Below, piece after piece: positions 1,012 to 44,469 of a stretch of 61,374 nt of DNA. The notes under the pieces were generated by a model. It was not told where the DNA came from, did not search any database, and worked only from the letters and a program-made list of their open reading frames with translations. The stretch comes from an uncultured Clostridia bacterium (GTDB taxonomy: Bacteria; Bacillota; Clostridia; TANB77; CAG-508), in contig CALXUT010000039.1 in NCBI GenBank assembly GCA_944391755.1, positions 1-61,374 on the forward strand, in the 5' to 3' direction. The translations under genes were made by a program, and so were the position numbers. Positions within the stretch are counted from its first letter, which is position 1. Each line of letters begins with the position of its first letter.

Positions 1012-4000
1012 ATGAAGGGGTTACAATTCTATAAAAGTGAAAAAAAAGAAAAGGGAGCAATTACACTATTTGTGTTATTAGCTTGCTTATTTTTTGTATT
1101 TATATTAACAGGAGTCTATTTATCATTATTAAATAGAGCCCAAGTACAAGAACAGGAAGTACAACAAATACATGACAATTATGCAAAAGATTTAGATCGA
1201 GTAGATGAAATATATGAAGAATTAGCAAAATCAACAATTGTAACATTAAGGCAAGATCCAAGTAATGGAACATGGACGAAAGATAATTTATATGGAGAAA
1301 TTACATTAGATACAAGTGTAACAGGGAAGGCTGTAGAGAAATATCAGTATTCAGAAAATGGAGTAATATGGAAAGATATACCTGGAAAACTTGAATTAAA
1401 TTATACAACGACATTTCCTATGTCAGGAAATAAACCAGAATGGATAAGTGAACCTAAAAGTGATAGTGATTATTATTTTGAGATAGATGAAAGCACAAAT
1501 TCATTGAAACCAAATAACTCAGGAATACATAATTCAACAGCAGAAAGTTATTTTGAAATAGATTTGACTGATTATCCAGAAGCAGAATTAGAAATAACTA
1601 TAAATGCAACAATTTCATGTGAAATAAATTATTATGATTATGGAATAGCTGCTATAATAAGTGAAGATACAGAACAAGAAATAATAAGAGTATGTGGAGA
1701 AACAATGACAGATGATTATACAACCACAATAAAAGGAGGAGAGAAATATTATTTATATATAGGATATATAAAAGATTCAATTGATGAAGAAGCATTTCAA
1801 GACACATTTACAATAAATAAAATAACACTAAAATCAGAAGAAATAGGAGATGGAATAAGATTTAATAATTATGCAAAAACAGATAATAAGGTAGTATTTA
1901 CATTAAATAATGATATAGAAAAAGAAATATATTTAAGAGCAGTATATACAGACAGTACTACAAGTAAATATGGAGATAAAACATCAATAAAGATAGATAA
2001 AAAAGAACCAGTAATAGAAAAAGCAGAACCAGTAATAACATCAAAAGAAGAAGCAAAAATAGAAGTAAAAGCAACAGATAAAGGCTCAGGATTAAAAGGA
2101 TATTATATAAGTACAGAAGATACACCTCCAACAGAAAGTAGTAATTGGATAGAACAAACAATGAATGAATTTACTATTGAAGATTTAATAACAAATACAA
2201 CATATTATTTATGGACTATAGATAAAGTAGGAAATATATCTCAAAGACAAGATATAGTAATAGGAATAGCAAATTATTTAGTAGATTATAGAATAACAAC
2301 AGAAACACTAGCAGAAGCAATAACGGTGGCATCAGATGGATCAATAATAAAATTATTAGGAGATTATACAGATACAAGTACAGCAACATTTAATAAAAGT
2401 GTAACATTTGATGTGCAAAGCTATACATTAACGAGAAGTTCAACCATAACAGTAAGTAGTGGTAAAACGGTAGAAATAACAGGAACAGGAAAAATAACAA
2501 GTGGAACAAGTAGTATATATACTATAACAAATAATGGAACATTAACAGTAAGTAATAGTATAACAATAGAGAATAATTCTACATCAACAAGTTATGCACC
2601 AATATACAACAACTATAGTTCAGCAATCATTAATATAGATGATAATGTACAAATCAATGGTTACTATAGAGGAATTTATAATTATAATGGAACATTAAAT
2701 GTAAATGGAGGAAAGATAGAAGCAACATATTCAAGTAGTAGCGCATATGGAATATATAATTATAGTAGAACAACTGTAAAACTATATATAAATGGAGGAG
2801 AAGTTAAAGGATATTATGGAGTATATAATGGAAGTTCTTCAACTATGGAAATGACAGGAGGAAAAGTAATAGGAACAGGAGCATATGGAGTATATGCATA
2901 TGGAACGACAAATATATATGGAGGAAGAATAGAAGGAAAGACATATGGAATATATGGATATTCATCAAATAAGATAACAATAGGAAGACAGGAAGACGGA
3001 TTAAGTGTTACAAATCCAGCAATCTATGGAGAAACATATGGAGTTGGTATGGGCAATTCTAATTATAATTTTAATTTTTATAATGGAGTATTAATAGGAA
3101 ATACAAGACAAACAACTTATAATGGAAGTATAATTCCAAGAACAGAATATATGCCATATACATATTTTACAGAAAATGATACAAAGTATCATACGATACT
3201 AGCAAAGGCAGTAGAAAATATAACAATGGAAGCAACACCAATTGAATTTACAAATGGAGATGTAACAGTAACTATAACATATCCATATAATAATGATACA
3301 AAACAGTATAGTGAAGATGGAATAGCATGGCAAGATGCAGACCAATATATGCAAGAAGTAATCATAACAGAAAATAAAAAAGTATATGCAAGGACACTAA
3401 ATGAATCAGGAGTAGTAACAGATGAAGAACAAATAGAAATAAATAATATAGATAAAGAAAAACCAACAGCAAGTGTATCGACAACACAAACAAATTATGT
3501 AGTAACAAATTCAAATGGAACGATAGATTTAACATTAACACTTACGGCAAATGATACAGGAGTAAGTAGATTAGATAAAGTACAATATGCATGGGCAGGA
3601 GAAGGAGAAGAAATAAAATATATAGATTTTGAAAGTACAGGAACAACAATAACAAAAAATAGTTTAGGAATAGGGCAATATAATTTATATTTTAATGTGA
3701 CAGATAAAGCAGGAAATAAAGCAGATTTCCAACAAATAAGATATAATGTAAAATATGAAGAACCAGTATGTAAGATAGGAAGTATAACATATACAACAGT
3801 ACAAGCTGCAGTAGATGCATGTAGTAAAACAGCAGGAGATACACAAACGACAATAGAAATGTTAAAAAGTACAGATGAAGAATTTGAAACATATGAAGGA
3901 CAAAATATCATATTAGATTTAAAAGGATATACAGTAGGAAGCTCAAATGCAGAAATACCTCTCTGTATAAACAATGGAACATTTACATTAGGAGATAATA

Positions 4001-7000
4001 GTACAGAAATAGAATATGATCTACCAACAATCTATGGATATAAAGTAGGAATAGAAAATAACAATATATTTAATTTCTATGACGGTAAGATTCAAGGAAT
4101 AACAGCAATACAGGGTGACGCAACAAATACACCAGAAGGATACGGACCAGTATCTACAGGGTATGAAAATGAAATAACAACTGTCCAATTAGGAGTTATA
4201 GAAGGATATGAAGCGAGAATAGAATGGGTATATTATACAAAAGTACAAGAAGCAGTAAATGCAACAAAAAAGTATAGTAATGAGTATAAAGATACTGTAA
4301 CAATAATAAAAGATATACAATTAAAGGAAACTTTAGAAGTAAATGAAAATAAAGATATAATATTAGATTTATGTGGTTATACATTAACTATATCTCCAGG
4401 TAATAATACTTTAGTAAATAATTATGGGAATTTGGAGATAACAGATAGTAGTATAGAACAAACCGGAAAATTAACAATAGATTCGACAAGTAACACTTAT
4501 GGAATCTATAATAATGATATTGGGAATATAAAGATAACAGGGGGAACAATAAATTGTAATAGTTATGGAATCTATAATAGTGGTATAGGAAATATAATAA
4601 TAGAAGGAGGAACAGTAAATAGTGCCTCTTCTGGAATCTATAATAATAATATAGGGAATATACAAATAATTGGTGGAGTAATAAATAATAGTGGTAGTTC
4701 TGGGATTTATAATAAAAGTACAGGAAATGTAAAAGTAATAGGAGGAACAATTAGTGTACACTATTCTGGAATTTATAACTATAGTACAGGAAGTATTGAA
4801 GTAACAGGAGGGATAATAAGCAGTAATACAAGTGGTGTTAGTTCTAGTAAGGGGATTTATAATCATAGTTCGGGAACAGTAACTGTTACAGGAGGAAACA
4901 TAAATAGTAGCAATGCTAGTGGTAATAGTTATGGAATATATAATAGTAATAATGGAAACATAATAATAGGAATAAAAGGAGATGAAATAGTATCTCAAGA
5001 AGAACCATATATAAAAGGAGAGTATACGGGAACATCAACTAATAGTGTTGGATACGGAATATATAATACAAAAGGTAAACTATATTTTTATGATGGAAAA
5101 ATAGAAGGAACAACTAAGGCTATATATGAATTGATAACAGAATATGAAGATAAGACAACTCTAAATTATAATGAAAATGAAACTATACTAACATTATCAA
5201 CGACATTAATACCGGTGGCACAAATAGGAACAACTACATATTTAACATTAGAAGATGCAATAAATGCAGTAGGAAATGAACAAACAACAATTGATCTATT
5301 AAGGAGTATAGTTTATACCGAAAATGATAAGATAATAACAATACCTAATACTGATAATATAGTATTAAATCTAAATGGCTATAGTATAACCTCAGATATG
5401 AAAGAAAAAACAATAGAAAATAATGGAATATTAGAAATAATAGATACAAGTGTAGAGCAAACTGGAACTATAGTTGCAACAAGTGAAGAAACTTTAACAA
5501 ATTTAAACGGAGGAAAATTAACAATATCAAGTGGAATAATAGAAAATAGGACAAAAACGGTAATATATAATGAAGGAGAACTCATAGTGAGTGGAGGGAA
5601 TGTAGATAGTTGTTCTAATTCTTCTAACTATAGTTATGGAATTTATAACAATAGTACGGGAAGTATAAAAGTATTAGGAGGAACGGTAAATGGTAGTAGC
5701 AATACTATTAACAGTAGTTATAGTTATGGAATTTATAATAATGATGAAGGCATAATAGAGATAACTTCGGGAACAGTAAGTAGTGTATGTAATAGTAATA
5801 GATATGGAAGAAGTTATGCTTTATATAATAATAGTATTGGAAATATAAAAATAACTGGAGGATTAGTAAGTAGTAGTTGTATTGTTAAATAGTACAGGCA
5901 ATGTAGTAATAACATCTGGAGAAATAAGTAGTAGTGGAGGCGTTGCTAGTTATGGAATATATAACAATAATATAGGAAATATAATCTTAGGAGTAAAAGA
6001 CGATGGAATAATATCTCAAGAAAATCCAAAAGTAACAAGTGGAATACATAATAATTCTGGAAAATTATTTTTTTATGATGGAAAAATAACAAGCACATCT
6101 AATACAATAATAGGAGATATAGTTGAAATAGAGAATTATACAGAAATAAATATAACTGATGAAATAACAAATAAAGTATTAACATTGCAACGAACAACAA
6201 CAAATGCAGCAAGAGTAAACGGGACAGAATATGACTCAATACAGAAAGCAGTAATTGCATGTGGAACGGAAGAAAGTACGATAGAAATATTAAGAGATTC
6301 AGATCCAGGAGCGACTGTAATAATTGAAGAAAATCAGAATATAACAATAGACCTAAACGGATATATAATCAACAATTACACAGAAATGCAAAATAAAGGA
6401 ACATTAACAATAAAAGATAGTTCATCTGGAGTATACAATAGTGTAAGTGGAACCGTAAATGTAGAAAGTGGAACAGTTAGTTCAAATACATACGGAATAT
6501 ATAATTATTCAAGTTCATCAACAGCAAATGTGAATGGAGGAACTATTTCATCAAATACATATGGAATTTATAATGCCGGAGGAACAACCAACATAAAAGA
6601 AGGCGCAGAAATACAATCAGATATAGGAATATATGCAGCAGGGGGAAGAATCAACATAGGAGAAACAGGAACAATGAATTCGAACAGTCCAATAATTACA
6701 GGAGAAACATATGGGTTATCAGTAACAACAGCTGGAATAGTATATATGTATGACGGTCAAATCAAAGGAAAAACAGGAGCAACCCAAGGATTTATCACCT
6801 ATACAGAAAGTGGATATGCAGTAGCGAATAAAATAGAAGGAGAATATTTTGTAGACTATTTGGCATTAGCAGGAACAGTAAACACAGTAGCAGAAGTAAA
6901 TGGAGTAAGTTATTCAAACCTACAATCAGCAATCAATAGTATCATAGGAGAAGAAACACAAACTATCAAATTAACAAATATTGATGCAACAGGAAGTGGA

Positions 7001-7267
7001 GTAGGAAAAATAACAAGTACAACCGGAACAGCTATTATAAATAGTGGAACATTAACATTAGGACAAGATGATGGAACAGTAAATCAAGACTTCATTACCA
7101 TAGAAGGACGAATATATGGAATAGAGACCACAGGAGAATTAAACTTCTATGATGGAACCATCAATGGAAGTTCAGCAGTAAGTGGAACAGTAACAAATAG
7201 ACCCTCTGGATATGTCATCAGAACAACGACAGTAAATGGAAAAGAAAGATATTATTTAACTATCTAA
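1012..7267 (+). CDS. Giant surface protein (~2084 aa if joined): pilin/PilX-like N-terminal helix, Ig/Fn3-like domains, beta-helix (YGIYN/TGG) repeats; split by a +1 frameshift into ORFs 1012..5892 and 5882..7267
   Basis: N-terminus KEKKG-AITLFVLLACLFFVFILTGV and many YGIYN..GG repeats. Removing one A at 5887-5889 gives the continuous reading SSSC-IVNSTGNVVITSG. Confidence 0.75.
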
Positions 7268-7285
7268 TTTTAAAATTTAAAAACA

Positions 7286-7328
7286 GGGACGGACCTTTTC
7301 GTAAAAATTTTACAGAAAGGTCCATCCC
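7286..7328. terminator. Bidirectional hairpin built from the REP-like motif, between convergent genes
   Basis: gggacggacctttt ... aaaggtccatccc inverted repeat. Confidence 0.65.
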
Positions 7329-7340
7329 TAAAATTAAAAT

Positions 7341-7970
7341 TTAAAAAAGCAAAGTAATTTTATTACCATTTTTCTTAATAAAACCCTCGTCGATAAGAAG
7401 TTTTAGCTCTCTCATCATAGCACTTCTATCAATACTCAAAAAATCAGCCAAGTCTGTATAAGAAAAAGGTATAGAAAAAGTTTTATGCAAAGAACGTTTG
7501 GAAAGTATATCAAAATAGGAAAGAATCTTACCTCTAATATTTCTTTTTGTTAAAAGTTCAATACGCAAATTCAAATTAATAATTTGATCTAAAAATAATT
7601 CACTTAAACTATTCACAAGGTTCTTATGAAAATCACAATTACGTCTACATTTATTAAAAAGAGAGTCATATGTAAAGAATAAAACTTCTGAATTTCTTTT
7701 AGCGACAACAAAAAGTTCATTGTTTGTATTAGCTGGATAAAAAACTTCTCCAAAAATATCATTTTCTTCAAAATTACCAATAATGGTTTTATTTCCATTA
7801 AAATCATATCGGATTAATTCAACTTTTCCAGTCAATAAAATACATATTTGATTACGTTTTTCAATATAGGTAGTAACCGTTTCTCCTTTTACAAATTTTT
7901 TTATTTGAACTTTATTGCAACTATGTTTAAAATTTTCTATAAAAATTTTTTTATCAAAATTAGTATCCAT
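7341..7970 (-). CDS. Crp/Fnr family transcriptional regulator
   Basis: cNMP-binding-like domain (LLTGKVELIRYD..GNKTII...DIFGE) and C-terminal HTH (LADFLSIDRSAMMREL). Start placed at the ATG at 7970, behind GGAGG. Confidence 0.9.
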   Translation of the reverse strand: MDTNFDKKIFIENFKHSCNKVQIKKFVKGETVTTYIEKRNQICILLTGKVELIRYDFNGNKTIIGNFEENDIFGEVFYPANTNNELFVVAKRNSEVLFFTYDSLFNKCRRNCDFHKNLVNSLSELFLDQIINLNLRIELLTKRNIRGKILSYFDILSKRSLHKTFSIPFSYTDLADFLSIDRSAMMRELKLLIDEGFIKKNGNKITLLF

Positions 7971-34636: not shown

Positions 34637-34739
34637 ATTACTTGTAAAACAAGCGGCACATTACTTTGGCTAATGTGTCGTTTAAGCTAAATATAGAGTA
34701 TAAATGCAATGTCATTTAGAAACAATAAAAGGAGAAAAG

Positions 34740-36104
34740 ATGGAAATCAAAAAGAATCAAGAATATATAGTAGATATAATAGACAATGGGTTTGAAGGAG
34801 AAGGAATTGCCAAAATAGACAATTTCACAGTATTTATTCCTGGAGCTATAAAAGGAGAAAAAATAAAAATCCTAATTGTAAAAGTATTATCTTCACATGC
34901 ATTTGGAAAAATTTTAGAAATTTTAGAAAAATCAGAAAAAAGACAAGATGCAGACTGTATTACTTATAAGAGATGTGGTGGATGTAATTTAAGACATATA
35001 CAGTATGAAGAAACTTTGAAGATGAAACAAAATGCAGTCCAAAGTTTAGTAAATAAAACTTTAAAAAATAAAATTCAAGTAGACAAAACTATTGGGATGG
35101 ATAAACCATATCATTACAGAAATAAAGCACAATATCCATTAGGAATTGATAAAAATGGAGACCCAGTAATAGGTGTTTTTGCAAATAGAACGCATGAAGT
35201 AATTCCAATGGAAAACTGTTTCATTCAAAATCCACAATCAGAAGAAATTGCAAAATATGTTTTACAATTTATAAAACAAAATCATATAAGTATTTATAAT
35301 GAAGAAACACAAAAAGGACTATTTAGGCATATCGTCATAAAAGTGGGAATAAAAACAAATGAAATTATGTGTATATTTGTTATAAATGGTAAAAATATTC
35401 CAAAAGAAAACGAACTAAAAAGTGCTTTAGTACAAAGATTTTCCAATATAAAAACCATTGTAAAAAATATCAATACAAAAAATACAAATGTGATTTTAGG
35501 AGAACAAAATATAAATATATTTGGAAATGGTTATATAGAAGATATTCTAGGGGAATATAGATTCAAAATTTCTCCACTATCTTTTTTCCAGGTAAATCCT
35601 ATTCAAGCGGAGAAACTATATAATATTGGGGTAAAGGCTGCGAATATTTCAAAAGATGATGTTGTATTTGATTTATATTGCGGAATTGGTACAATTTCAT
35701 TATTTATGGCGAAATTTGCTAAAAAAGTCTATGGAATTGAAATTGTAAAAGAAGCGGTAGAAATGGCAAAAGAAAATGTGAAAAATAATCATATTGAAAA
35801 TGTTGAATTTTACGATGGGGATGTCGAAATTGTTCTAGAGGATATGATACATAATAAAAAGATTATTCCGGATATTGTTATGTTTGATCCTCCTAGAAAA
35901 GGATTAGATAAAAAGAGTATCCATAATATTTTGAAAATCAAACCTAAAAAAATAGTGTATATTAGTTGTAATCCTGCTACTTTGATTAGGGATTTATCTG
36001 ATTTTGAGGACTTATATGAAGTAAAATCTATTACGCCTGTTGATATGTTTCCTTTTACCAGCCATGTGGAGTGTGTGGCAGTTTTAGAACTAAAGAATTT
36101 CTAA
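34740..36104 (+). CDS. rlmD: 23S rRNA (uracil-C5)-methyltransferase with TRAM domain
   Basis: TRAM domain, CxxxxxCGGC, YRNK, SFFQVN, DLYCGIG, DPPRKG, YISCNP and DMFPFTSHVE. Confidence 0.96.
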   Translation: MEIKKNQEYIVDIIDNGFEGEGIAKIDNFTVFIPGAIKGEKIKILIVKVLSSHAFGKILEILEKSEKRQDADCITYKRCGGCNLRHIQYEETLKMKQNAVQSLVNKTLKNKIQVDKTIGMDKPYHYRNKAQYPLGIDKNGDPVIGVFANRTHEVIPMENCFIQNPQSEEIAKYVLQFIKQNHISIYNEETQKGLFRHIVIKVGIKTNEIMCIFVINGKNIPKENELKSALVQRFSNIKTIVKNINTKNTNVILGEQNINIFGNGYIEDILGEYRFKISPLSFFQVNPIQAEKLYNIGVKAANISKDDVVFDLYCGIGTISLFMAKFAKKVYGIEIVKEAVEMAKENVKNNHIENVEFYDGDVEIVLEDMIHNKKIIPDIVMFDPPRKGLDKKSIHNILKIKPKKIVYISCNPATLIRDLSDFEDLYEVKSITPVDMFPFTSHVECVAVLELKNF

Positions 36105-36283
36105 TAATTACTAAATTTAATAGCAAATAGAATACACTAAAAAATTTTAAGTAAAGTGCCTTGTAAAATAGGTACTTTTTTTGGATCAAGATTTCAATTT
36201 ATTAAGTATGAAGTTTAATGAATTTATTGAGGAAAATGTAAATTTGTGATATAGTGTAGACAGAAAATTAGAGGTGTAAGAAT

Positions 36284-36709
36284 ATGAAATTAATTTGTAA
36301 GATAACAGATGAAGATGTTGGAGAAAAAAGTATGAATATGGATAATCCTAAATTAAGATTAGGAGCAAGAGGGATTGTTATAAGAGAAGACGGGAAAATT
36401 GCTATATTTAACAAGAGTAAGAAAAATGAGTATAAATTACCAGGAGGAGGATTAGAAGGAGAAGAAAATCCAGAGGAAGCATTCAAAAGAGAAATACTAG
36501 AAGAAACTGGTTGCGAAATAAAAATAATAGAAAATTTAGGAACAACAGAGGAATATAAGTCATTAAATAATTTTAAGCAGATTTCTTATGTATTTGTTGG
36601 TAAAGTTTTAAAAGATACGAAGCAATTAAATGCGACGAAAAAAGAAAAAGAAGAAGGTGCTAAATTATTGTGGGAAACTCCTGAAAAAGATTATAAAGTT
36701 CAAAAGTAG
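36284..36709 (+). pseudogene. NUDIX hydrolase, probably C-terminally truncated
   Basis: PGGGLEGEENPEEAFKREILEETG; ends abruptly in ETPEK-DYKVQK*. Confidence 0.65.
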
Positions 36710-36829
36710 AGTGAACTTGAAAATGTTATTTTTATAATTTCTTCAAAAGTAGAAAAAATGAGTTTAAAAAAAGGGGATGATAAATAAAGATAGTAGTTTT
36801 ATGAAAAAGTGTTTAGTGGAGGTGAAAAT

Positions 36830-37240
36830 ATGGGAAAAGTTTTAAAAGTGAGGGAAGTAGGAGATCCAATACTTGAAAAAATATCAGAAGATGTGGATAT
36901 AAAAAATATAGATAATAAAATTTTAGACATTATAGAAGACTTAACGGAAACATTAAAATTTGGAACTGGACTAGGAATAGCAGTACCTCAAATTGCTGTA
37001 AATAAGAGAATTATTGTGGTAGGAGCAAAAAAGGAAAACATAAAATATAATGATGCAGAAGAAATACCAATAACAGCAATGATAAATCCGACTTGGAAAA
37101 AGTTATCCGAAGATACAGATACACAATATGAAGGATGTATGAGTGTACCTAGTATAAGAGGAAAAGTAAAAAGATATAAGAATATAGAATTAACTTATTA
37201 TAATGAAAATGAAATTAGAAGATTTAAAAATAAAATATGA
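36830..37240 (+). pseudogene. def: Peptide deformylase, truncated
   Basis: GLGIAVPQI and EGCMSVP are present; the HExxH metal motif is absent and the 3' end runs into the UDG gene. Confidence 0.8.
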
Positions 37241-37868
37241 TAAATTGCAGAAAAAATACGGAGCAAAAGAATTGGATTCCATTTATAACGGAGGATGCAC
37301 CAATAATCCAGATATATGCTTTGTATTCATGAATCCAACAGGAAAAAATATAGCATCATCAAAAGAATGGAAAGGAATAAAATCTCCTTGGATAGGAACT
37401 AAAAATATTTGGGATTTATTTTATCAATTAAATTTGATGAATGAAGATATTTATAAAGAAATAAAAATAAAGAAAAGTAGTGAATGGACAGAAAAATTTG
37501 CAGATAAAGTATATGAAGATGTAAAAGTACATAAATACTTTATAACAAATCTAGGAAAATGTACGCAAGTAGATGCAAGAGAACTGCCAGATAGTGTTTA
37601 TAAAGAATATTTAGATTTGTTAAAACAAGAAATAGAAATTATAGATCCGAAAGTAATCGTTCTATTTGGAAATCAAGTTAGTTCTATTGTTCTAAACCAA
37701 AAAATATCTGTTTCACAAAGTAGAAAAAAATTATTTAAGTATGATATTATGGGGAAAGAATATAAGTTTTATTCTGTTTATTATCCAGTAGGAAATGGGA
37801 GATTTAATATTGATAAATCTATTGAAGATATAAAATGGATTATAGAGAATGAAAAATGGAGGATATGA
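37209..37868 (+). CDS. Uracil-DNA glycosylase superfamily protein
   Basis: FVFMNPTGKN, ITNLGKC, IIDPKVIVLFG and YYPVGNG; UDG-like fold pattern. Confidence 0.7.
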   Translation: MKLEDLKIKYDKLQKKYGAKELDSIYNGGCTNNPDICFVFMNPTGKNIASSKEWKGIKSPWIGTKNIWDLFYQLNLMNEDIYKEIKIKKSSEWTEKFADKVYEDVKVHKYFITNLGKCTQVDARELPDSVYKEYLDLLKQEIEIIDPKVIVLFGNQVSSIVLNQKISVSQSRKKLFKYDIMGKEYKFYSVYYPVGNGRFNIDKSIEDIKWIIENEKWRI

Positions 37869-37954
37869 AATATATATTATAACAATTGGAAAACAATAAT
37901 TATAAAATAAACTATGAAATAAACGATTTATTAGAACTAAAAAATATATTATAA
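37865..37954 (+). pseudogene. Gene remnant (start MKYIL and end YEINDLLELKNIL* retained)
   Basis: GGAGG plus ATG coupled to the UDG stop, an in-frame TAA, then a C-terminus typical of HAD hydrolases. Confidence 0.4.
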
Positions 37955-37969
37955 ATTCGGAGGAACAAA

Positions 37970-38539
37970 ATGGAAGAAGTTGTATTTGTAACACATAATA
38001 AAGGAAAAATTGAATCAGCTAAAAAACAATTAGAAGAGATAGATTTTCAAATATTTGAATATGAACTAGAAGAACCAAGAAGTGATGACATTAAATATAT
38101 ATCAAAACATAAAGTGATGGAAGCCTATAAATTAGTAAACAAGCCATGTATTTCTTTAGATTGTGGTTTTTGGATAGATGAATTAGATGGATTTCCAAAA
38201 GCATTTGTAAACTTTGCATTAGAAACAATAGGAATACAAGGAATATTGAAATTAATGGAAGGAAAAGAAAATAGAGATTGTAGATTTACGGAATGTTTAT
38301 CTTATTATGATGGAAAAGAATTGCATCAATTTATGGGAAAACATGAAGGAACACTATCGAAAGAAATTCTAGGAAAAGACACAAATAAGAAATGGTCAGA
38401 TTTATGGTACATATATAAACCCCTTGGATACAATAAAACATTAGCAGAGATGACAGATGAAGAAAGAGCAACAAGAGTCAAATATAAATCTGTGGATTCT
38501 ATGAGAGAATTTGCGAAATGGTACAGAGAAGAAAAATAG
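37970..38539 (+). CDS. Non-canonical purine NTP pyrophosphatase (HAM1/RdgB-like)
   Basis: VFVTHNKGK, DCGFWIDELDGFP and HEGTLS. Confidence 0.8.
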   Translation: MEEVVFVTHNKGKIESAKKQLEEIDFQIFEYELEEPRSDDIKYISKHKVMEAYKLVNKPCISLDCGFWIDELDGFPKAFVNFALETIGIQGILKLMEGKENRDCRFTECLSYYDGKELHQFMGKHEGTLSKEILGKDTNKKWSDLWYIYKPLGYNKTLAEMTDEERATRVKYKSVDSMREFAKWYREEK

Positions 38540-38603
38540 ATTTTAATTGAGAAATTAATGAGCTTATGGTATATTATGTATGTAAAATTTGAGGTGTGTT
38601 GAT

Positions 38604-39017
38604 ATGAAGAAATTAAATGTAATATTAGTTTATAGTAACGAAGAAAACAAAATATTGATGTGTAAAAGAGAAAAAGAACCATATAAGGGAAAATTAAATT
38701 TAGTCGGAGGAAAAGTAGAACAAAATGAAGACGAATTACATGCTGCATATAGGGAATTACAAGAAGAGACAGGAATAACAAAGAGCGATATTGTATTAAC
38801 ACATATTATGAATTTTCAATACAAAATGTCAAATATGGAATTAGAAGTATATGCAGGTAAATTAAATAAAGATGTGCAATTAAAAGAAGAAATAAACAAA
38901 TTATATTGGATAGATAAAAATGAAAACTTTTTTGATGTGGACAAATATGCAGGAGAAGGAAATATAGGACATATGATACGACAAGTAGAAATCAATAAAA
39001 ACAAATTATTTTTATAA
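38604..39017 (+). CDS. NUDIX hydrolase (MutT-like)
   Basis: KEPYKGKLNLVGGKVEQNEDELHAAYRELQEETG. Confidence 0.9.
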   Translation: MKKLNVILVYSNEENKILMCKREKEPYKGKLNLVGGKVEQNEDELHAAYRELQEETGITKSDIVLTHIMNFQYKMSNMELEVYAGKLNKDVQLKEEINKLYWIDKNENFFDVDKYAGEGNIGHMIRQVEINKNKLFL

Positions 39018-39035
39018 AAAATATAAGGAGGAAAA

Positions 39036-39611
39036 ATGGAAGAACTAAAAGAACAAATAGAAAAATATCAACCATATAATGAACAAGAATAAAAAGACAA
39101 ACAAATTATGCTAAAATACATAAATAGCTTTGATAATGTACTTACAAGAGATAATGAATTTGGACATTTTACAGCATCATCGTGGGTAGTAAACAAAGAA
39201 AAAACAAAAGTGCTAATGATATATCATAATATATACAAATCATGGACATGGACAGGAGGACATGCAGATGGAGAAACAAATTTATTAGGCACAGCTATTC
39301 GCGAATTAAAAGAAGAGACGGGAATTAAAAATGTAAAAGTACTAGATGATAATATATTTTCATTAGAAATTATATGTGTAAATGGACATGTAAAAAGAGG
39401 AAAATATGTGGGTTCTCATGTACATCTAAATGTAACTTATCTTTTAGAAGTAGATGAAAAAGAAAAACTAAGCATAAAAGAAGACGAAAACAGTGGTGTG
39501 AAATGGGTTGATATAGAAGATATAGAAAAAGTATCAAGTGAAGAATGGATGATAGAAAGAGTTTTCAAAAAATTATATGAAAAGTTAGAAAAATATGAAA
39601 TGAATTGTTAA
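39036..39611 (+). pseudogene. NUDIX hydrolase with in-frame TAA at codon 19
   Basis: GGAGG plus ATG at 39036 reads MEELKEQIEKYQPYNEQE*KDKQIM; then GHFTAS and GGHADGETNLLGTAIRELKEETG. Confidence 0.8.
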
Positions 39612-39653
39612 ATATAAGCTAACTATAATATATCAAAATAGAGAGGAAATGAA

Positions 39654-40304
39654 ATGATGATTATAGCAATAGATGGATTAGCAGTAAATGGTAAAACCAC
39701 TCTAGCTAAAATGATTTCAAAGAAATTAAATTTTAAGAATTTTAATACAGGAGCGATATATAGATGTATGGCATTAGAGATGATAAATAAAAATTTAGAC
39801 ATAAATCATATTGAAACTGTTATAGAGCATTTGAAAAATATAGATATAAATTTTGAAGGAACAAAAGTCATATTAAATGGAAAAGATGTTAGTGAAGAAA
39901 TTCGAACAGAAAAAATATCGTTATGTTCAAATAAATGGGCGACAAATGAGCAAATAAAAGAGATAGTAAGAAAAAAACAAAAAGAGTTTATTAGTAAATA
40001 TGATACAGTAATAGAAGGACGAGATATAGGAACAAGAATAGCTCCAAATGCGGATATAAAATTCTATTTATATTCTGATTTTGAAACTAGAGTAAATAGA
40101 GCATGGAATCAAGATAGAACAGCACCTATAGATAAAATAAGAGAAAATATAAGAAAAATAGACGATGTGGATATTTATGGTGGTAATTTTATAAAGCCAC
40201 AAAATGCAATAGAAATAAAAACAGATGACAAAACAATTGAACAAGTATATGATATTATGATGGATAAAATAATGAGTTACATGGGAAGCAATGAGAAAGA
40301 ATGA
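39654..40304 (+). CDS. cmk: Cytidylate kinase-like protein
   Basis: IAIDGLAVNGKTT, NTGAIYR, EGRDIGT and ADIKFYL. Confidence 0.8.
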   Translation: MMIIAIDGLAVNGKTTLAKMISKKLNFKNFNTGAIYRCMALEMINKNLDINHIETVIEHLKNIDINFEGTKVILNGKDVSEEIRTEKISLCSNKWATNEQIKEIVRKKQKEFISKYDTVIEGRDIGTRIAPNADIKFYLYSDFETRVNRAWNQDRTAPIDKIRENIRKIDDVDIYGGNFIKPQNAIEIKTDDKTIEQVYDIMMDKIMSYMGSNEKE

Positions 40305-40339
40305 TATAATTAATGAGATAATTATTAAGGAGAATATAT

Positions 40340-41740
40340 ATGGAATATTTTGATGTATTAAATGAAAACGGAGAATTTACAGGAAAAATAGAATCACGAG
40401 AAGAATGTCATAAAAAAGGACTATGGCATAGAGCGGTATATGGATTTATATTTAATAAAAATGGAGAAGTTTTACTACAAAAAAGAAGTAAAAATAAAAA
40501 ATTATGGCCTAATTTATGGGATGTAACAGTAGGAGGTCATGTTTTATCAGGAGAATTTGGAAAGCAAGCATTAATAAGAGAAACAAAAGAAGAACTTGGA
40601 ATTGTAATAAAAGAAAATGAAATCCAATATTTAGTTGGTTCTACATCTAGTAATATAAAAGGAAATATCATTAATAACCACTTTAATGAATGTTATATTA
40701 TTACAAAAGATATAGAAATATCACAAATACAATTACAAGAAGATGAAGTAGAAGAAGTAAGATGGTTTCCAAAACAAGAAATATTGGCTAGAATAAATGA
40801 TAATTTTAATGGTATAACAGAAAAAACAGGACCATGGAATTTTCTAAAAAAGTATTATGAAACATTAGATAAAATTATCATAGAAGTTGGCTCTACATGT
40901 ACAAAAATAGATAAGTATGATGGAAAAAATGTAGAAAGAATAAAAGAGATAACCATAGAATTTAAAAGACATTATGCAGAAGATAAAAAATTAAGAGAAA
41001 AAGATGTAGAAAAGCTTATATCAGAAATTAATAAGATAAAAGATATTTCAAAAAATATATATGTGTGTGGTACAAGTATTTTTAGAAATCTAGAAGAAAA
41101 AGAAAGAAAAGAATTTTTAGAAAAATTTAAAAAAGAAACAGAATTAGATTTTCATATTATTTCTCAAGAAAGAGAAAATGAATTAACCGTTTTCGGAGCA
41201 ACTAGATTTGTAAATAAAAAAGTATGTGTATTTATAGGAGGAGGCGGTTCTACAGAGATTTCTATTTATGATAAAAAAATAGTAGAAACAGCCAATACAA
41301 AAATCGGCGTTATTGATATCATGCAAGAATTCAAAGATTTAGGAGAAGATTTTGCAACAACAGATGTAGAAACAGTAAAAAAATACATAAAACAAAAACT
41401 AAATTTACCAAAACACAAAGCAGATATATTAATATTAGCCGGTGGAGGACATGAAAAATTTGCAAGACTTTCAGGAATAAAATATGAAAAAAACACATTA
41501 TATGAAGACAATGCTTCACCAATTATGATGGATATAGACACTAGAAAAAAAGAAACAGAAAGATATTATAAAGAAATATCATTAGATGAAATAAGAAATA
41601 AAGTAGATGATCCAGATTGGTGGTATGCAACAAGAGCAATGTGTGCATTTGTATTAGTAGTAGCAGAAGAAATTGGAGCAAAATATATTGTTCCAACAGA
41701 TATTGCAATGGTATATGGATTATTAAATAATAAAGAATAA
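40340..41740 (+). CDS. Fusion: IDI-like NUDIX domain plus Ppx/GppA-like (ASKHA) domain
   Basis: N-terminal WDVTVGGHVLSGE...RETKEELG; C-terminal IEVGSTCTK, GTSIFR, RENELTVFG and IGGGGSTEI. Confidence 0.7.
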   Translation: MEYFDVLNENGEFTGKIESREECHKKGLWHRAVYGFIFNKNGEVLLQKRSKNKKLWPNLWDVTVGGHVLSGEFGKQALIRETKEELGIVIKENEIQYLVGSTSSNIKGNIINNHFNECYIITKDIEISQIQLQEDEVEEVRWFPKQEILARINDNFNGITEKTGPWNFLKKYYETLDKIIIEVGSTCTKIDKYDGKNVERIKEITIEFKRHYAEDKKLREKDVEKLISEINKIKDISKNIYVCGTSIFRNLEEKERKEFLEKFKKETELDFHIISQERENELTVFGATRFVNKKVCVFIGGGGSTEISIYDKKIVETANTKIGVIDIMQEFKDLGEDFATTDVETVKKYIKQKLNLPKHKADILILAGGGHEKFARLSGIKYEKNTLYEDNASPIMMDIDTRKKETERYYKEISLDEIRNKVDDPDWWYATRAMCAFVLVVAEEIGAKYIVPTDIAMVYGLLNNKE

Positions 41741-41751
41741 GGAGATAAAAA

Positions 41752-42345
41752 ATGAAGATATTATTTGCAACAACAAATCCAGCAAAAGTAGAAAGATATG
41801 TGCCTAAATTACAAGAAAAAGGTGTAGAGGTTTTAACACTTAAAGATATAGATAAAAATATTCATGTAGAAGAAACAGGAAAAAATGCTTTAGAAAATGC
41901 ATATATAAAAGCGAAAGCCTATTATGATATTACAAAAATAACAACCATTGGTATGGATAATAATTTATTTATAGAAGAATTACCAGAGGAAAAACAACCA
42001 GGTACCCATGTAAGAAGAGTAAATGGTAGAACTTTAAATGATGATGAGATGATTGACTACTACACTGGTTTAGTAAAAGAATATGGTGGAAAGTTGACAG
42101 CCAAATGGGTATATGGAATGGTAATATATAACGGAAAAGAAACAAAAGAATATACTTGGAATAAAAACCATTTTTATTTTATAGATAAAGTTTGTGAAAA
42201 GAGAAATCCAGGTTATCCATTAGATTCCATATCCATAGCTCCAGAATATCATAATAAATATTTTGTGGAATTAACAGAACAAGAAAAAAACAGTAAAGAA
42301 AGTAATGTAGATAATGTGATTCAGTTTATAATGGAAAATATATAA
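41752..42345 (+). CDS. Second HAM1/ITPase-like NTP pyrophosphatase
   Basis: KILFATTNPAK, EETGKNALENAYIKA and DNNLFI...PGTHVRR. Confidence 0.8.
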   Translation: MKILFATTNPAKVERYVPKLQEKGVEVLTLKDIDKNIHVEETGKNALENAYIKAKAYYDITKITTIGMDNNLFIEELPEEKQPGTHVRRVNGRTLNDDEMIDYYTGLVKEYGGKLTAKWVYGMVIYNGKETKEYTWNKNHFYFIDKVCEKRNPGYPLDSISIAPEYHNKYFVELTEQEKNSKESNVDNVIQFIMENI

Positions 42346-42371
42346 GTAAAAAGAAGGTAAAGGAGAAACAT

Positions 42372-43259
42372 ATGCAAGAATTTATCCCACAATTTCTTAA
42401 AGAAATGCTTTTAGAACAATATGGAGAAGATTTAACAAGCCAAATAATAAATGGATATCATGAAAAAAGATTGGTTACATTACGAATCAATACAATAAAA
42501 GCAACAAAAGAGAAAATATGTGAAAAATTAAAAAAAGCAGGAATACATTTTAAAATAGTAACATGGTATAAAGATGCACTCATCATAGAAAATGCAAGAG
42601 AAGAAGAAATAAAAAAATTAGAAATGTATGATAATGGAGAAATCTATTTACAAAGTTTATCTTCTATGATTCCACCGATTATACTAGAACCAAAAGCAGG
42701 TGAAAATATATTAGATATGGCTGCAGCACCAGGAGGAAAGACAACTCAAATTGCAGCAATGACAAACAATAGAGCAATGATCACAGCTTGTGAAAAAAAT
42801 AAAATAAGAGCTGAAAGATTAAAATATAATTTGCAAAAACAAGGAGTAGGATGTACCAATATTATGATAGAAGATGCTAGAAAATTAAGTGATTTCTTTT
42901 CATTTGATAAAATATTATTAGATTCTCCTTGCAGTGGAAGCGGGACAGACAATGTAAAAAATAAAGATTTTTCAAAAGAATTAATTGAAAGGTCTACAAA
43001 AATACAAGAAGAACTTTTAAGAAAAGCATTAAAATTATTAAAAAAAGGCAATGAAATGATATATTCAACATGTTCTATACTTAAACAAGAAAATGAGAAC
43101 ATACTAAAAAAAGTAATTACTAAAAGTAATGCAGAAATCATTCCAATAGGAAACATAGACGGGATTCCATTATTGCCAGTAACTATAAAAGGAACAATTT
43201 GTGTATGTCCTACGAATGAATATGAGGGATTTTTTGTGGCTAAAATTAGAAAATTGTAA
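42372..43259 (+). CDS. RsmB/NOP (RsmF-like) RNA m5C methyltransferase
   Basis: QSLSSM, LDMAAAPGGKT, ILLDSPCSG, YSTCS and EGFFVA. Confidence 0.92.
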   Translation: MQEFIPQFLKEMLLEQYGEDLTSQIINGYHEKRLVTLRINTIKATKEKICEKLKKAGIHFKIVTWYKDALIIENAREEEIKKLEMYDNGEIYLQSLSSMIPPIILEPKAGENILDMAAAPGGKTTQIAAMTNNRAMITACEKNKIRAERLKYNLQKQGVGCTNIMIEDARKLSDFFSFDKILLDSPCSGSGTDNVKNKDFSKELIERSTKIQEELLRKALKLLKKGNEMIYSTCSILKQENENILKKVITKSNAEIIPIGNIDGIPLLPVTIKGTICVCPTNEYEGFFVAKIRKL

Positions 43260-43277
43260 TGATAGGAGGAATAATAG

Positions 43278-44054
43278 ATGGGAATAGCATATGGCTTATT
43301 AATTCCTTTTTTAGGAACTGCACTTGGCTCTGCAATGGTAATCTTTTTAAAAAACGACATAAAAGAAACAATAAAAAAGTTATTATTAGGATTTGCAGCA
43401 GGTGTAATGATAGCAGCATCCATTTGGTCACTAATGTTACCAGCGATAGAGATGTTAGAAGAGCAAGGAAAAATAGAATGGTTAATACCTGCAATTGGTT
43501 TTTTATCAGGAATATTATTTTTGCTTATTTTAGATAGTATCATACCACACTTGCATTTAGATAAAGAAAAGCCAGAAGGTATTAAATCAAAATTACAAAA
43601 GACCACAATGCTTGTTTTAGCTGTAACTTTACACAATATTCCAGAAGGAATGACAATGGGTGTAGTATTGGCAGGAGCTTTTATGGAAAATACAGGAATT
43701 ACCATAGCAGGAGCTTTCGCTTTAGCAATAGGTATAGCTATACAAAACTTTCCAGAAGGAGCAATTATATCTATGCCTTTAAAAACGGAAGGAGTATCAA
43801 AAGGAAAAGCATTTTTATATGGTACATTATCAGGCATTGTTGAACCAATTGCAGCCATTATAACAATATGTTTGACAAATCTTATAGTACCTATATTACC
43901 ATTTTTATTATCATTTGCAGCAGGTGCAATGATGTATGTTGTAGTAGAAGAATTAATACCAGAATCACAAATGGGAGAACATTCTAATATTGGTACAATT
44001 GGAGTTGCTGTAGGTTTTGTGATTATGATGATATTAGATATTGCTTTAGGATAA
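43278..44054 (+). CDS. ZIP family metal transporter (ZupT-like)
   Basis: LHNIPEG, IQNFPEG and VVEELIPE. Confidence 0.93.
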   Translation: MGIAYGLLIPFLGTALGSAMVIFLKNDIKETIKKLLLGFAAGVMIAASIWSLMLPAIEMLEEQGKIEWLIPAIGFLSGILFLLILDSIIPHLHLDKEKPEGIKSKLQKTTMLVLAVTLHNIPEGMTMGVVLAGAFMENTGITIAGAFALAIGIAIQNFPEGAIISMPLKTEGVSKGKAFLYGTLSGIVEPIAAIITICLTNLIVPILPFLLSFAAGAMMYVVVEELIPESQMGEHSNIGTIGVAVGFVIMMILDIALG

Positions 44055-44107
44055 AATATAAAAACATTTACAAATAAAAAAAGTTTGTAAATGTTTTATT
44101 TTTTATA

Positions 44108-44136
44108 TTGACACATACCCTATAGGGGTATATAAT
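44108..44136 (+). promoter_or_regulatory. sigmaA promoter with CsoR operator in the spacer
   Basis: TTGACA-17 nt-TATAAT enclosing ATACCCTATAGGGGTAT (C-tract/G-tract CsoR site). Confidence 0.85.
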
Positions 44137-44154
44137 AACGATGAGGTGATAAAG

Positions 44155-44469
44155 ATGAGTGATAATGAAAATATATCATGTTGCAATAATAAACAAAGAA
44201 AAACATATAGAACAGATGAAAAAAAGAAAGAGTTATCAAAAAGATTAAACATTATAGAAGGACAAATTAGAGGAATCAATCAAATGATAACTGAAGATAG
44301 ATATTGTGATGATGTATTAATACAAATAGCAGCAGTCAATAGTGCATTAAAAAGTTTGGGAAATAACATCTTAGAAGACCACCTAAAAGGATGTGTTGTT
44401 CGTGACATACAAAATGGAGATTTAGACATAATAGAAGAAGTCATGAAATTAATAAAAAAATTACAGTAA
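44155..44469 (+). CDS. csoR: CsoR family copper-sensing repressor
   Basis: RLNIIEGQIRGI, YCDDVLIQ and HLKGC. Confidence 0.9.
   Translation: MSDNENISCCNNKQRKTYRTDEKKKELSKRLNIIEGQIRGINQMITEDRYCDDVLIQIAAVNSALKSLGNNILEDHLKGCVVRDIQNGDLDIIEEVMKLIKKLQ

Follow-up and report, generated by a model that had tools for sequence, protein, structure and literature searches.

A variable array of accessory nucleotide-processing genes between rlmD and an RsmB-like gene in an uncultured gut Clostridia bacterium

Gene content of the interval

We analysed a 61,374-nucleotide stretch of DNA from an uncultured Clostridia bacterium (contig CALXUT010000039.1; hereafter the window), which carries an array of genes for small nucleotide-processing enzymes directly downstream of rlmD, the gene for a 23S rRNA 5-methyluridine (m5U) methyltransferase. 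The window is contig C39 of a 1.48-Mb metagenome-assembled genome (MAG; GCA_944391755.1) that consists of 51 contigs and is 88% complete; its GC content is approximately 27%. The host order comprises uncultured gut Clostridia with small genomes (1.2–2.4 Mb) of approximately 27% GC, and the related records are MAGs of such bacteria from humans, goats, sheep, rabbits and other animals. Throughout, C-numbers denote contigs of the host genome, G-numbers genomes of relatives and L-numbers loci of relatives.

Between the rlmD stop codon (36104) and a gene for an RsmB/F-like RNA 5-methylcytidine (m5C) methyltransferase (42372–43259) lie nine co-directional open reading frames (ORFs) on the + strand. 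A preliminary description had read this segment as a selected module for handling damaged or modified nucleotides. Profile searches with Pfam and NCBIfam, on which all domain identities below are based (equivalog cut-offs are those of NCBIfam), confirmed its inventory of four NUDIX domains, two HAM1-like pyrophosphatases, a uracil-DNA glycosylase (UDG)-family protein, a CMP kinase (CMK)-like kinase and a Ppx/GppA-like domain on one strand within about 6 kb. The possible HAD remnant that it had also listed was not recovered: no spacer contains a HAD-like frame, and the DNA in question consists of a truncated peptide deformylase (def) gene and the 3' tail of an AAA_21 gene. The features of the interval are as follows.

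34704..36104, + strand: rlmD/rumA (23S rRNA m5U methyltransferase), intact; left border of the flexible interval
36153..36178, + strand: terminator-like hairpin followed by a T-run, 3' of rlmD (sequence scan)
36227..36255, + strand: promoter-like site TTGAGG-17-TATAGT with TG extension, ahead of the array (consensus match only)
36284..36709, + strand: NUDIX1, 141 aa, a C-terminally truncated chimera (Pfam NUDIX, 55.1 bits)
36689..36754, + strand: 3'-end remnant of an AAA_21 ATPase gene, 66 nt (DNA homology)
36809..37240 (probable start 36830), + strand: def fragment (Pfam Pep_deformylase)
37203..37868, + strand: UDG-superfamily protein, 221 aa (Pfam/NCBIfam and predicted fold)
37970..38539, + strand: HAM1a, archaeal-type ITPase-like, 189 aa (Pfam Ham1p_like, 78.4 bits)
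38589..39017 (probable start 38604), + strand: NUDIX2, MutT-like, 137 aa (Pfam, NCBIfam)
39036..39611, + strand: NUDIX3, ancestral frame; open ORF 39108–39611, 167 aa (Pfam)
39654..40304, + strand: (d)CMP kinase paralogue, 216 aa (TIGR00017)
40340..41740, + strand: NUDIX4–Ppx/GppA fusion, 466 aa (Pfam, NCBIfam)
41752..42345, + strand: HAM1b, divergent RdgB/HAM1-like, 197 aa (Pfam Ham1p_like, 62.3 bits)
42372..43259, + strand: RsmB/F-like RNA m5C methyltransferase; right border of the interval in several species

Clustering, redundancy and selection

The clustering of these genes is beyond chance. Four of the ten NUDIX domains in the 1.48-Mb genome fall within 4.4 kb, an arrangement that random placement (2 million trials) produced within 4.4–6.2 kb at a frequency of 2.5e-5 to 5.8e-5. 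Two of the three HAM1 genes of the genome lie as close together as they do here with a simulated p of approximately 0.018. Canonical copies are present elsewhere: cmk on C29, RdgB on C45, def beside priA on C1, and on C8 a family-4 UDG with the motifs GEGPG, HPAALLR and CxxC. These canonical counterparts mark the array genes as extra, accessory copies. Loss of dUTPase as a cause of the additional UDG and NUDIX copies was ruled out, as dut is present on C27.

We next compared the genes with their orthologues by the pairwise Nei–Gojobori method. The dN/dS ratio was 0.13–0.24 for all array families, including def and NUDIX1, and 0.17 and 0.25 for the flanking rlmD and RsmB-like genes, in comparisons that are cross-species and have synonymous sites near saturation. 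These ratios indicate that the families are kept by purifying selection. The array is also 99.7–99.98% identical on contigs of three other metagenome samples, which indicates that it is stable within the species. A higher DNA identity of the array genes than of rlmD was considered as a sign of recent transfer and left unused: the difference is small and near saturation (proportion of synonymous differences, pS, 0.46–0.53 versus 0.58).

Divergent enzyme families in the array

All four NUDIX domains pass the PF00293 gathering threshold (51.8–72.2 bits versus 21.1). As read from the translations, the Nudix box Gx5Ex7REUxEExGU is canonical in NUDIX1 (GGLEGEENPEEAFKREILEETGC), NUDIX2 (GKVEQNEDELHAAYRELQEETGI) and NUDIX4 (GHVLSGEFGKQALIRETKEELGI), and NUDIX3 has one additional residue preceding RE (GGHADGETNLLGTAIRELKEETGI). 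None of the four meets the MutT, RppH, NudB or IDI equivalog cut-offs (for example, 43 versus 97.9 for MutT and 81 versus 127 for IDI). NUDIX2 is weakly MutT-like. NUDIX4, residues 1–175 of the fusion protein, resembles YfcD, IDI and DR0079 and keeps a Nudix box of the hydrolase type; by eye it lacks the catalytic Cys context of IDI. NUDIX3 matches an uncharacterised NUDIX hydrolase from structural genomics (Protein Data Bank (PDB) 3fcm; E 1.8e-57 over 160 residues); the window copy has lost ~24 N-terminal residues to a stop codon.

This stop codon is one of three lesions in the array. The ancestral start of NUDIX3 (39036) lies behind a strong AAGGAGG ribosome-binding site, and an in-frame TAA follows 18 codons on (39090–39092), removing the N-terminal extension; an intact 189-aa version is found at L014 (G004). 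The NUDIX3 of G003 (L013) carries an independent stop a few codons further along, and the two stops look like parallel inactivation or N-terminal shortening. NUDIX1 comprises approximately 135 residues of a 181-aa NUDIX family, represented at full length at L015 and L044, followed by six codons and a stop from the tail of another gene. Homology to its family breaks off at 36687–36693, ~45 residues early, and the last six codons together with the following 45 nt are the tail of an AAA_21 gene in an in-frame fusion. The remnant is 84% identical to the 3' end of a 275-aa AAA_21 gene that is intact in G020 (L020:4113–4940); this parent is an AbiEii/OLD-like AAA_21 ATPase. The def fragment matches positions 2–119 of the 156-position Pep_deformylase profile and is cut after approximately residue 134. 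It ends after motif 2 (EGCMS), without the metal-binding HExxH, whereas relatives are 181–198 aa long and contain HECDH. Its homology stops at 37211, exactly at the start of the UDG block, and the fragment is a probable pseudogene.

HAM1a and HAM1b exceed the PF01725 gathering threshold (78.4 and 62.3 bits versus 22.5) but score below the HAM1 equivalog cut-offs (NF011396, 123.6 versus 203; NF011399, 69.4 versus 267). Alignments inspected by eye show that the canonical phosphate-binding motif GxPGxYSxR, present as GEPGVYSARY in the canonical RdgB on C45, is replaced by GFPKAFVNF in HAM1a and by QPGTHVRRV in HAM1b. The nearest characterised relatives of HAM1a are the archaeal ITPases Mj0226 and PH1917, and in the PDB it matches the M. 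jannaschii pyrophosphatase best (1b78/2mjp, E 1.5e-22); HAM1b matches E. coli RdgB/YggV weakly. HAM1a also matches the HAM1-like KomB chain of PDB 8zsg, annotated as a non-canonical purine NTP pyrophosphatase, with 58 bits, under its archaeal ITPase match (84 bits). KomB is a component of the Kongming defence system, and the Pfam and NCBIfam scans identified no Kongming partner among the annotated array genes.

The UDG-like protein passes the Pfam UDG superfamily cut-off (30.9 bits versus 24.3) but fails the family-4 test (TIGR00758, 41.2 versus 125.3 bits), and with only three cysteines it has no four-Cys Fe–S set. Its motifs A and B are an invariant FMNPTG and YYPxGNG, where family 4 has GE(A/G)PG and HP(S/A); the Asn in motif A is as in the MUG/SMUG type. 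An AlphaFold2 model (pLDDT 81.7) has the alpha/beta UDG fold, and Foldseek matched it to family-4 UDG (T. thermophilus 1ui0, S. tokodaii 4zbx), UdgX, TDG and MUG at TM-scores of 0.5–0.6 (E 2e-8 to 1e-6). By its profile match, motifs and predicted fold, the protein is a divergent member of the UDG superfamily outside family 4. Its homologues number more than 5,000, and many of these are 81–87% identical to the window protein, a level of identity that extends across more than 100 distinct 90%-identity clusters. In a sample of 300 genomes from across the class, 3 carried the family, all of them in the host order.

The CMK paralogue is the sole array enzyme above an NCBIfam equivalog cut-off (TIGR00017, 157.8 bits versus 135.55; profile positions 3–216 of 217). 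It has the P-loop GLAVNGKT and is a second copy, 38.5% identical to the canonical cmk (C29:25378–26055). Residues 176–466 of the fusion protein form a Ppx/GppA-type ASKHA phosphatase with an intact GGGSTE motif; the Pfam Ppx-GppA match spans residues 207–406 (PF02541, 61.7 bits versus 27; profile positions 21–218 of 285), and the TIGR03706 score is 60.4 against a cut-off of 307. Most relatives encode NUDIX4 and Ppx separately, with either one first, and the two form one continuous stretch in L031.

The same interval in relatives

To place the array in context, we mapped both border genes, rlmD and the RsmB-like gene, in 40 relatives and retrieved the DNA downstream of rlmD. Thirty further loci were gathered with the NUDIX4–Ppx protein and others with the UDG-like protein. 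The array families recur in approximately 45 related loci. The frame of rlmD and the RsmB-like gene encloses variable genes in L013, L014, L031, L034, L059 and L066, and the DNA after rlmD is hypervariable in the genus. Homologues of the array genes, 60–87% identical at the protein level, recur in nearly all orders and combinations, of which the following are examples (two dots mark intervening genes).

G003 and G004: HAM1a-NUDIX3-HAM1b
G016: NUDIX1-NUDIX-def
L033: HAM1b-UDG-Ppx-..-NUDIX4-YjjX-NUDIX2
L037: UDG-YjjX-Ppx-NUDIX4-NUDIX2
L040: NUDIX1-..-HAM1b-rSAM-YfbR-..-HAM1a-NUDIX4-Ppx-NUDIX-UDG
L059: rlmD-HAM1b-rSAM-UDG-..-GNAT-..-YjjX-NUDIX2-dGTPase-RsmB
L066: rlmD-..-GNAT-NUDIX-YjjX-UDG-HAM1-RsmB

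Blocks of DNA homology are single genes, give or take ~30 nt, with differing neighbours. The other recurrent occupants are mostly nucleotide enzymes: NTPase_I-T (YjjX), canonical-type HAM1, a CMK-like kinase, Q_salvage, a HAD-like domain fused to an inosine-uridine nucleoside hydrolase (IU_nuc_hydro), several HAD phosphatases, two YfbR-type HD 5'-nucleotidases, a dGTPase-like HD protein, a deoxyribosyltransferase-like protein (Nuc_deoxyri_tr2) and RelA_SpoT small alarmone synthetases. Looser clustering extends to a further genus within the family and to a further family within the order. The preliminary description had held that these genes are not random cargo, proposing gene-neighbourhood conservation as the check and random content without recurring co-occurrence as the outcome that would refute it. 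In the comparison the families co-occur repeatedly across relatives. Homologues recur together in related species and in other genera and families, their neighbours are overwhelmingly nucleotide-processing genes and the families are under purifying selection, all of which bears out that claim. The notion of a selected module held in part: the locus is themed and its families are selected, but it is not fixed, given that order and membership differ nearly everywhere, the blocks are single genes and three of the nine local ORFs are damaged.

Several further genes were seen at these loci. Fused proteins include a Pfam-confirmed NUDIX–GNAT fusion of 344 aa (L015:4877–5911) and, at L070, a 328-aa protein that matches NUDIX3 (6699–7685) and a 474-aa protein that matches the RdgB type (18464–19888); as with NUDIX4–Ppx in the window, domain fusion seems to be common in these arrays. 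A radical SAM protein of ~357 aa, absent from the window, recurs in L016, L031, L032, L040, L042 and L059 (for example, L059:8879–9952), where its gene adjoins YfbR-like HD, NUDIX4, HAM1b or UDG genes. We considered it as a viperin (pVip) and rejected this assignment: viperin, MoaA and SPASM models match the generic SAM core only, the viperin match amounting to 43–50 bits over ~90 residues.

Turnover of the interval

The preliminary description had also regarded the 3' end of rlmD as an integration hotspot. The region just past rlmD is indeed an indel hotspot in the genus, and some species have large serine recombinases there, but the rlmD of this genome is undamaged, is followed by a terminator of its own and lacks the marks of an insertion. 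The gene carries TRAM and tRNA_U5-meth_tr domains (scored on the identical gene in L028) and is alignable with at least 13 orthologues up to its stop codon, without a 3' exchange. No integrase turned up in the Pfam and NCBIfam scans of the genes that separate rlmD from the RsmB-like gene, there are no direct or inverted repeats at the borders or in the spacers, and the GC content of the array equals that of its flanks. The array is not an integrated element at the rlmD 3' end in this genome.

How the genes are exchanged is suggested by G003 and G004, which are 96% identical and differ by three multi-kb indels. One indel left multi-piece remnants in G003 and one breakpoint lies at the rlmD stop codon, with no junction repeats visible. 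Turnover without such repeats has the look of recombination combined with deletion, not of site-specific cassette capture, and the junctions that cut through genes likewise point to deletion or illegitimate recombination. The most likely route of exchange is recombination between the arrays of different species, anchored on shared genes, together with deletions.

We also considered an integron-like cassette array. Vibrio chromosomal integron arrays contain GNAT, NUDIX and the house-cleaning enzyme iMazG, and resemble the window in their short, co-directional single-gene units, in an order and membership that vary among relatives and in similar content (NUDIX, GNAT and small hydrolases). The window differs in having neither attC-like repeats nor an adjacent integrase. 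This candidate was rejected: there is no attC-like or shared intergenic inverted repeat, junctions cut genes and some spacers are only 12–36 bp long. No integrase adjoins the array, a statement that covers its neighbourhood, no genome-wide intI search having been made.

An 8-kb contig labelled viral by IMG/VR (L061, IMGVR_UViG_3300006131_000392) carries, at 3879–5542, HAM1b-like (46% identical) and UDG-like (81% identical) genes flanked by two large serine recombinase genes, which hints that some genes of the array families travel with recombinase-bearing elements. A phage origin of the array genes was considered and rejected: searches for HAM1b relatives in IMG/VR returned none, and the UDG-like matches there lie beside serine recombinases, not phage structural genes.

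Host purine metabolism

Both purC and purH are missing from the host genome. Of 24 relatives searched, many of them 97–100% complete, 23 lack purC and 23 lack purH; both genes were found in control genomes. This absence implies that the lineage does not make purines de novo and must import them as preformed bases, nucleosides or nucleotides. A pyrF-type gene and dut are present in the host genome. In G015, which otherwise has no purine synthesis, a purC (SAICAR synthetase) fragment of 44 bits with a stop codon lies just downstream of rlmD (G015:C6:67670–67801) and may be what is left of a pur operon once present there.

Interpretation of the array

We interpret the interval as a flexible nucleotide sanitation and salvage locus composed of accessory second copies, a reading to which we assign a probability of roughly 0.6. 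The substrates, co-transcription, joint physiological role and exchange mechanism are those that we infer. The array would be an enzyme battery for the imported and recycled nucleotide pool of a purine-dependent host. HAM1a, HAM1b and the NUDIX enzymes would convert non-canonical or surplus (deoxy)nucleoside triphosphates ((d)NTPs) to monophosphates, and the NUDIX–Ppx/GppA fusion would strip terminal phosphates off polyphosphorylated nucleotides or polyphosphate. Through the additional CMP kinase, pyrimidine monophosphates would return to the pool, and the divergent UDG-like protein would excise a misincorporated base from DNA. The frame genes, which make m5U and m5C in RNA, and a Maf gene that lies upstream of rlmD in two species provide a suggestive, if speculative, thematic tie, and Maf hydrolyses m5UTP, m5CTP and pseudo-UTP (PMC3899018).

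The concept of house-cleaning NTP pyrophosphatases is reportedly that of Galperin et al. in 2006. Such enzymes (MutT/NUDIX, HAM1/RdgB/ITPase, YjjX, Maf and MazG) share their superfamilies with the array and, presumably, the hydrolysis of non-canonical (d)NTPs before incorporation. Elsewhere they are scattered single copies, whereas the array has extra copies below equivalog cut-offs in one variable locus. The enzymes belong to known superfamilies, and what seems to be new is the themed, reshuffled arrangement, of which a limited literature search found no description. House-cleaning enzymes are usually studied as lone conserved genes; here a lineage packs many divergent extras into one reshuffled locus. 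If the sanitation and salvage reading is true, the locus records which abnormal nucleotides matter to gut scavengers. It also offers a compact enzyme set for substrate screening, with a new branch of the UDG superfamily, two atypical HAM1 types and a NUDIX–Ppx fusion.

Several points weigh against this reading. The related loci were mostly found with NUDIX4, Ppx and UDG baits, which inflates the apparent frequency of these genes, and the MAG is 88% complete. With NUDIX1 and def truncated and NUDIX3 interrupted by an early stop, three of the nine ORFs carry damage, which suggests that part of the array in this species is in decay and not under selection. Genes without a nucleotide theme share the interval in relatives (def, GNAT, Ser_hydrolase, Sel1, FeoAB and MutL, as well as YjbR, ASCH, the radical SAM protein and occasionally large serine recombinases). 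Finally, given the deviant HAM1 motifs and the scores below equivalog cut-offs, the activities could differ from those named.

A broader version of the reading, which we consider tentative and on balance doubtful, would make the rlmD–RsmB interval an order-wide nucleotide-hygiene locus. Approximately 25 families (NUDIX, HAM1, YjjX, HD nucleotidases, dGTPase-like, HAD, UDG-like, kinases, Ppx and alarmone synthetases) would form a shared pool, swapped gene by gene between species of purine-auxotrophic gut Clostridia, and each species would tune its set to foreign, damaged or modified nucleotides, nucleoside-analogue toxins or phage nucleotides. If true, the locus would be a small-molecule counterpart of a defence island.

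Alternative explanations

The array might instead be an anti-phage or counter-defence toolbox that degrades phage nucleotides (dUTP, hm-dNTPs, dZTP or dITP) or immune signalling nucleotides, as in a defence island. The interval is hypervariable, as are defence islands and loci of nucleotide-depletion immunity (dGTPase, dCTP deaminase and Kongming KomB), and its occupants in some species include large serine recombinases, Bro-N and an AAA_21 ATPase. The dGTPase-type HD protein of relatives scores 176 bits on the PADLOC dGTPase model, HAM1a shares its fold with KomB and matches the 8zsg chain, the NUDIX proteins match the PADLOC candidate PDC-S07, and UDG-like homologues lie between serine recombinases on IMG/VR contigs. 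PADLOC, however, returned generic single-domain matches only (PDC-S07, VakA with E 1e-4, and mad2) and no system-level match, and the window array has no effector, sensor or toxin partner. The lack of HAM1b relatives in IMG/VR and the purely generic viperin match of the radical SAM neighbour also count against an immune role, and the companions in relatives (Q_salvage, nucleoside hydrolase, HAD nucleotidases, deoxyribosyltransferase-like and FolC-like proteins) suit salvage better. Nothing specific supports the tie to phage-modified dNTPs or nucleoside analogues that the preliminary description had drawn. We regard a phage-directed function as unlikely; if it were real, the locus would be a new kind of variable site for immunity or counter-immunity. 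Under either reading, genes have been pooled by theme without recognisable cassette machinery. Somewhat more improbable in our view is that the interval is a graveyard of redundant paralogues, in which small hydrolase genes pile up at a recombination-prone, low-cost site and decay slowly without joint function. The three lesions in nine ORFs, the independent nonsense codon in the NUDIX3 of G003, the multi-piece deletion remnants in G003 relative to G004, the purC fragment in G015 and the canonical copies elsewhere in the genome are what such a site would leave. Against this stand the low dN/dS of every family across species, the conservation of the UDG-like protein, motifs included, over more than 100 clusters, and a thematic enrichment that is difficult to account for without selection.

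An alarmone or polyphosphate control unit, in which the NUDIX–Ppx/GppA fusion and its neighbours chiefly degrade (p)ppGpp, (p)ppApp or polyphosphate, would fit the intact GGGSTE motif, the RelA_SpoT small alarmone synthetase genes that lie ~3–5 kb from Ppx in L033, L035 and L039, and the HD_4 protein that adjoins NUDIX4 in L054–L056. It would account for no more than one or two of the nine, leaving HAM1, UDG and CMK aside, and the window array has no synthetase; we consider it very unlikely. The least probable explanation, and one largely refuted for this genome, is that the genes are cargo of a mobile element integrated site-specifically at the rlmD/rumA 3' end. Serine-integrase integrative and conjugative elements (ICEs) target rumA in streptococci and C. 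difficile, inserting within the gene and exchanging its 3' end (PMC4701971, PMC4320837). Those of Streptococcus and CTn5 of C. difficile share the landmark gene with the window, and in the genus the indels that start from the rlmD stop codon, as between G003 and G004, and the serine recombinases 10–12 kb downstream of rlmD in G015 and G016 recall them. Such elements replace the rumA 3' end and carry an integrase and conjugation genes, whereas the window has none of these: its rlmD is intact to the stop codon, and neither repeats nor a GC shift accompany the array. In addition, array genes occupy the same frame in many recombinase-free species.

Transcription signals and flanking genes

The hairpin at 36153–36178 is the sole + strand terminator-like site in the scanned region (35900–44200). 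The promoter-like site that follows lies in AT-rich DNA, and shuffled sequence gives at least as many such matches. Spacers between several array genes are short (12–50 bp), and the array is probably transcribed from a single promoter just past the rlmD terminator. Because no other + strand terminator-like site precedes 44200, the array, the RsmB-like gene and a ZIP gene may form one transcription unit. A search for riboswitches and other known RNAs that might control the array found none at E <= 1 besides a tRNA-Leu upstream of rlmD; a mir-1012 match within the rlmD coding sequence was below threshold and was treated as chance. A perfect sigma-70 consensus promoter (TTGACA-17-TATAAT) at 44108–44136, directly ahead of a csoR–copA copper-resistance pair, delimits the possible long transcription unit on its 3' side.

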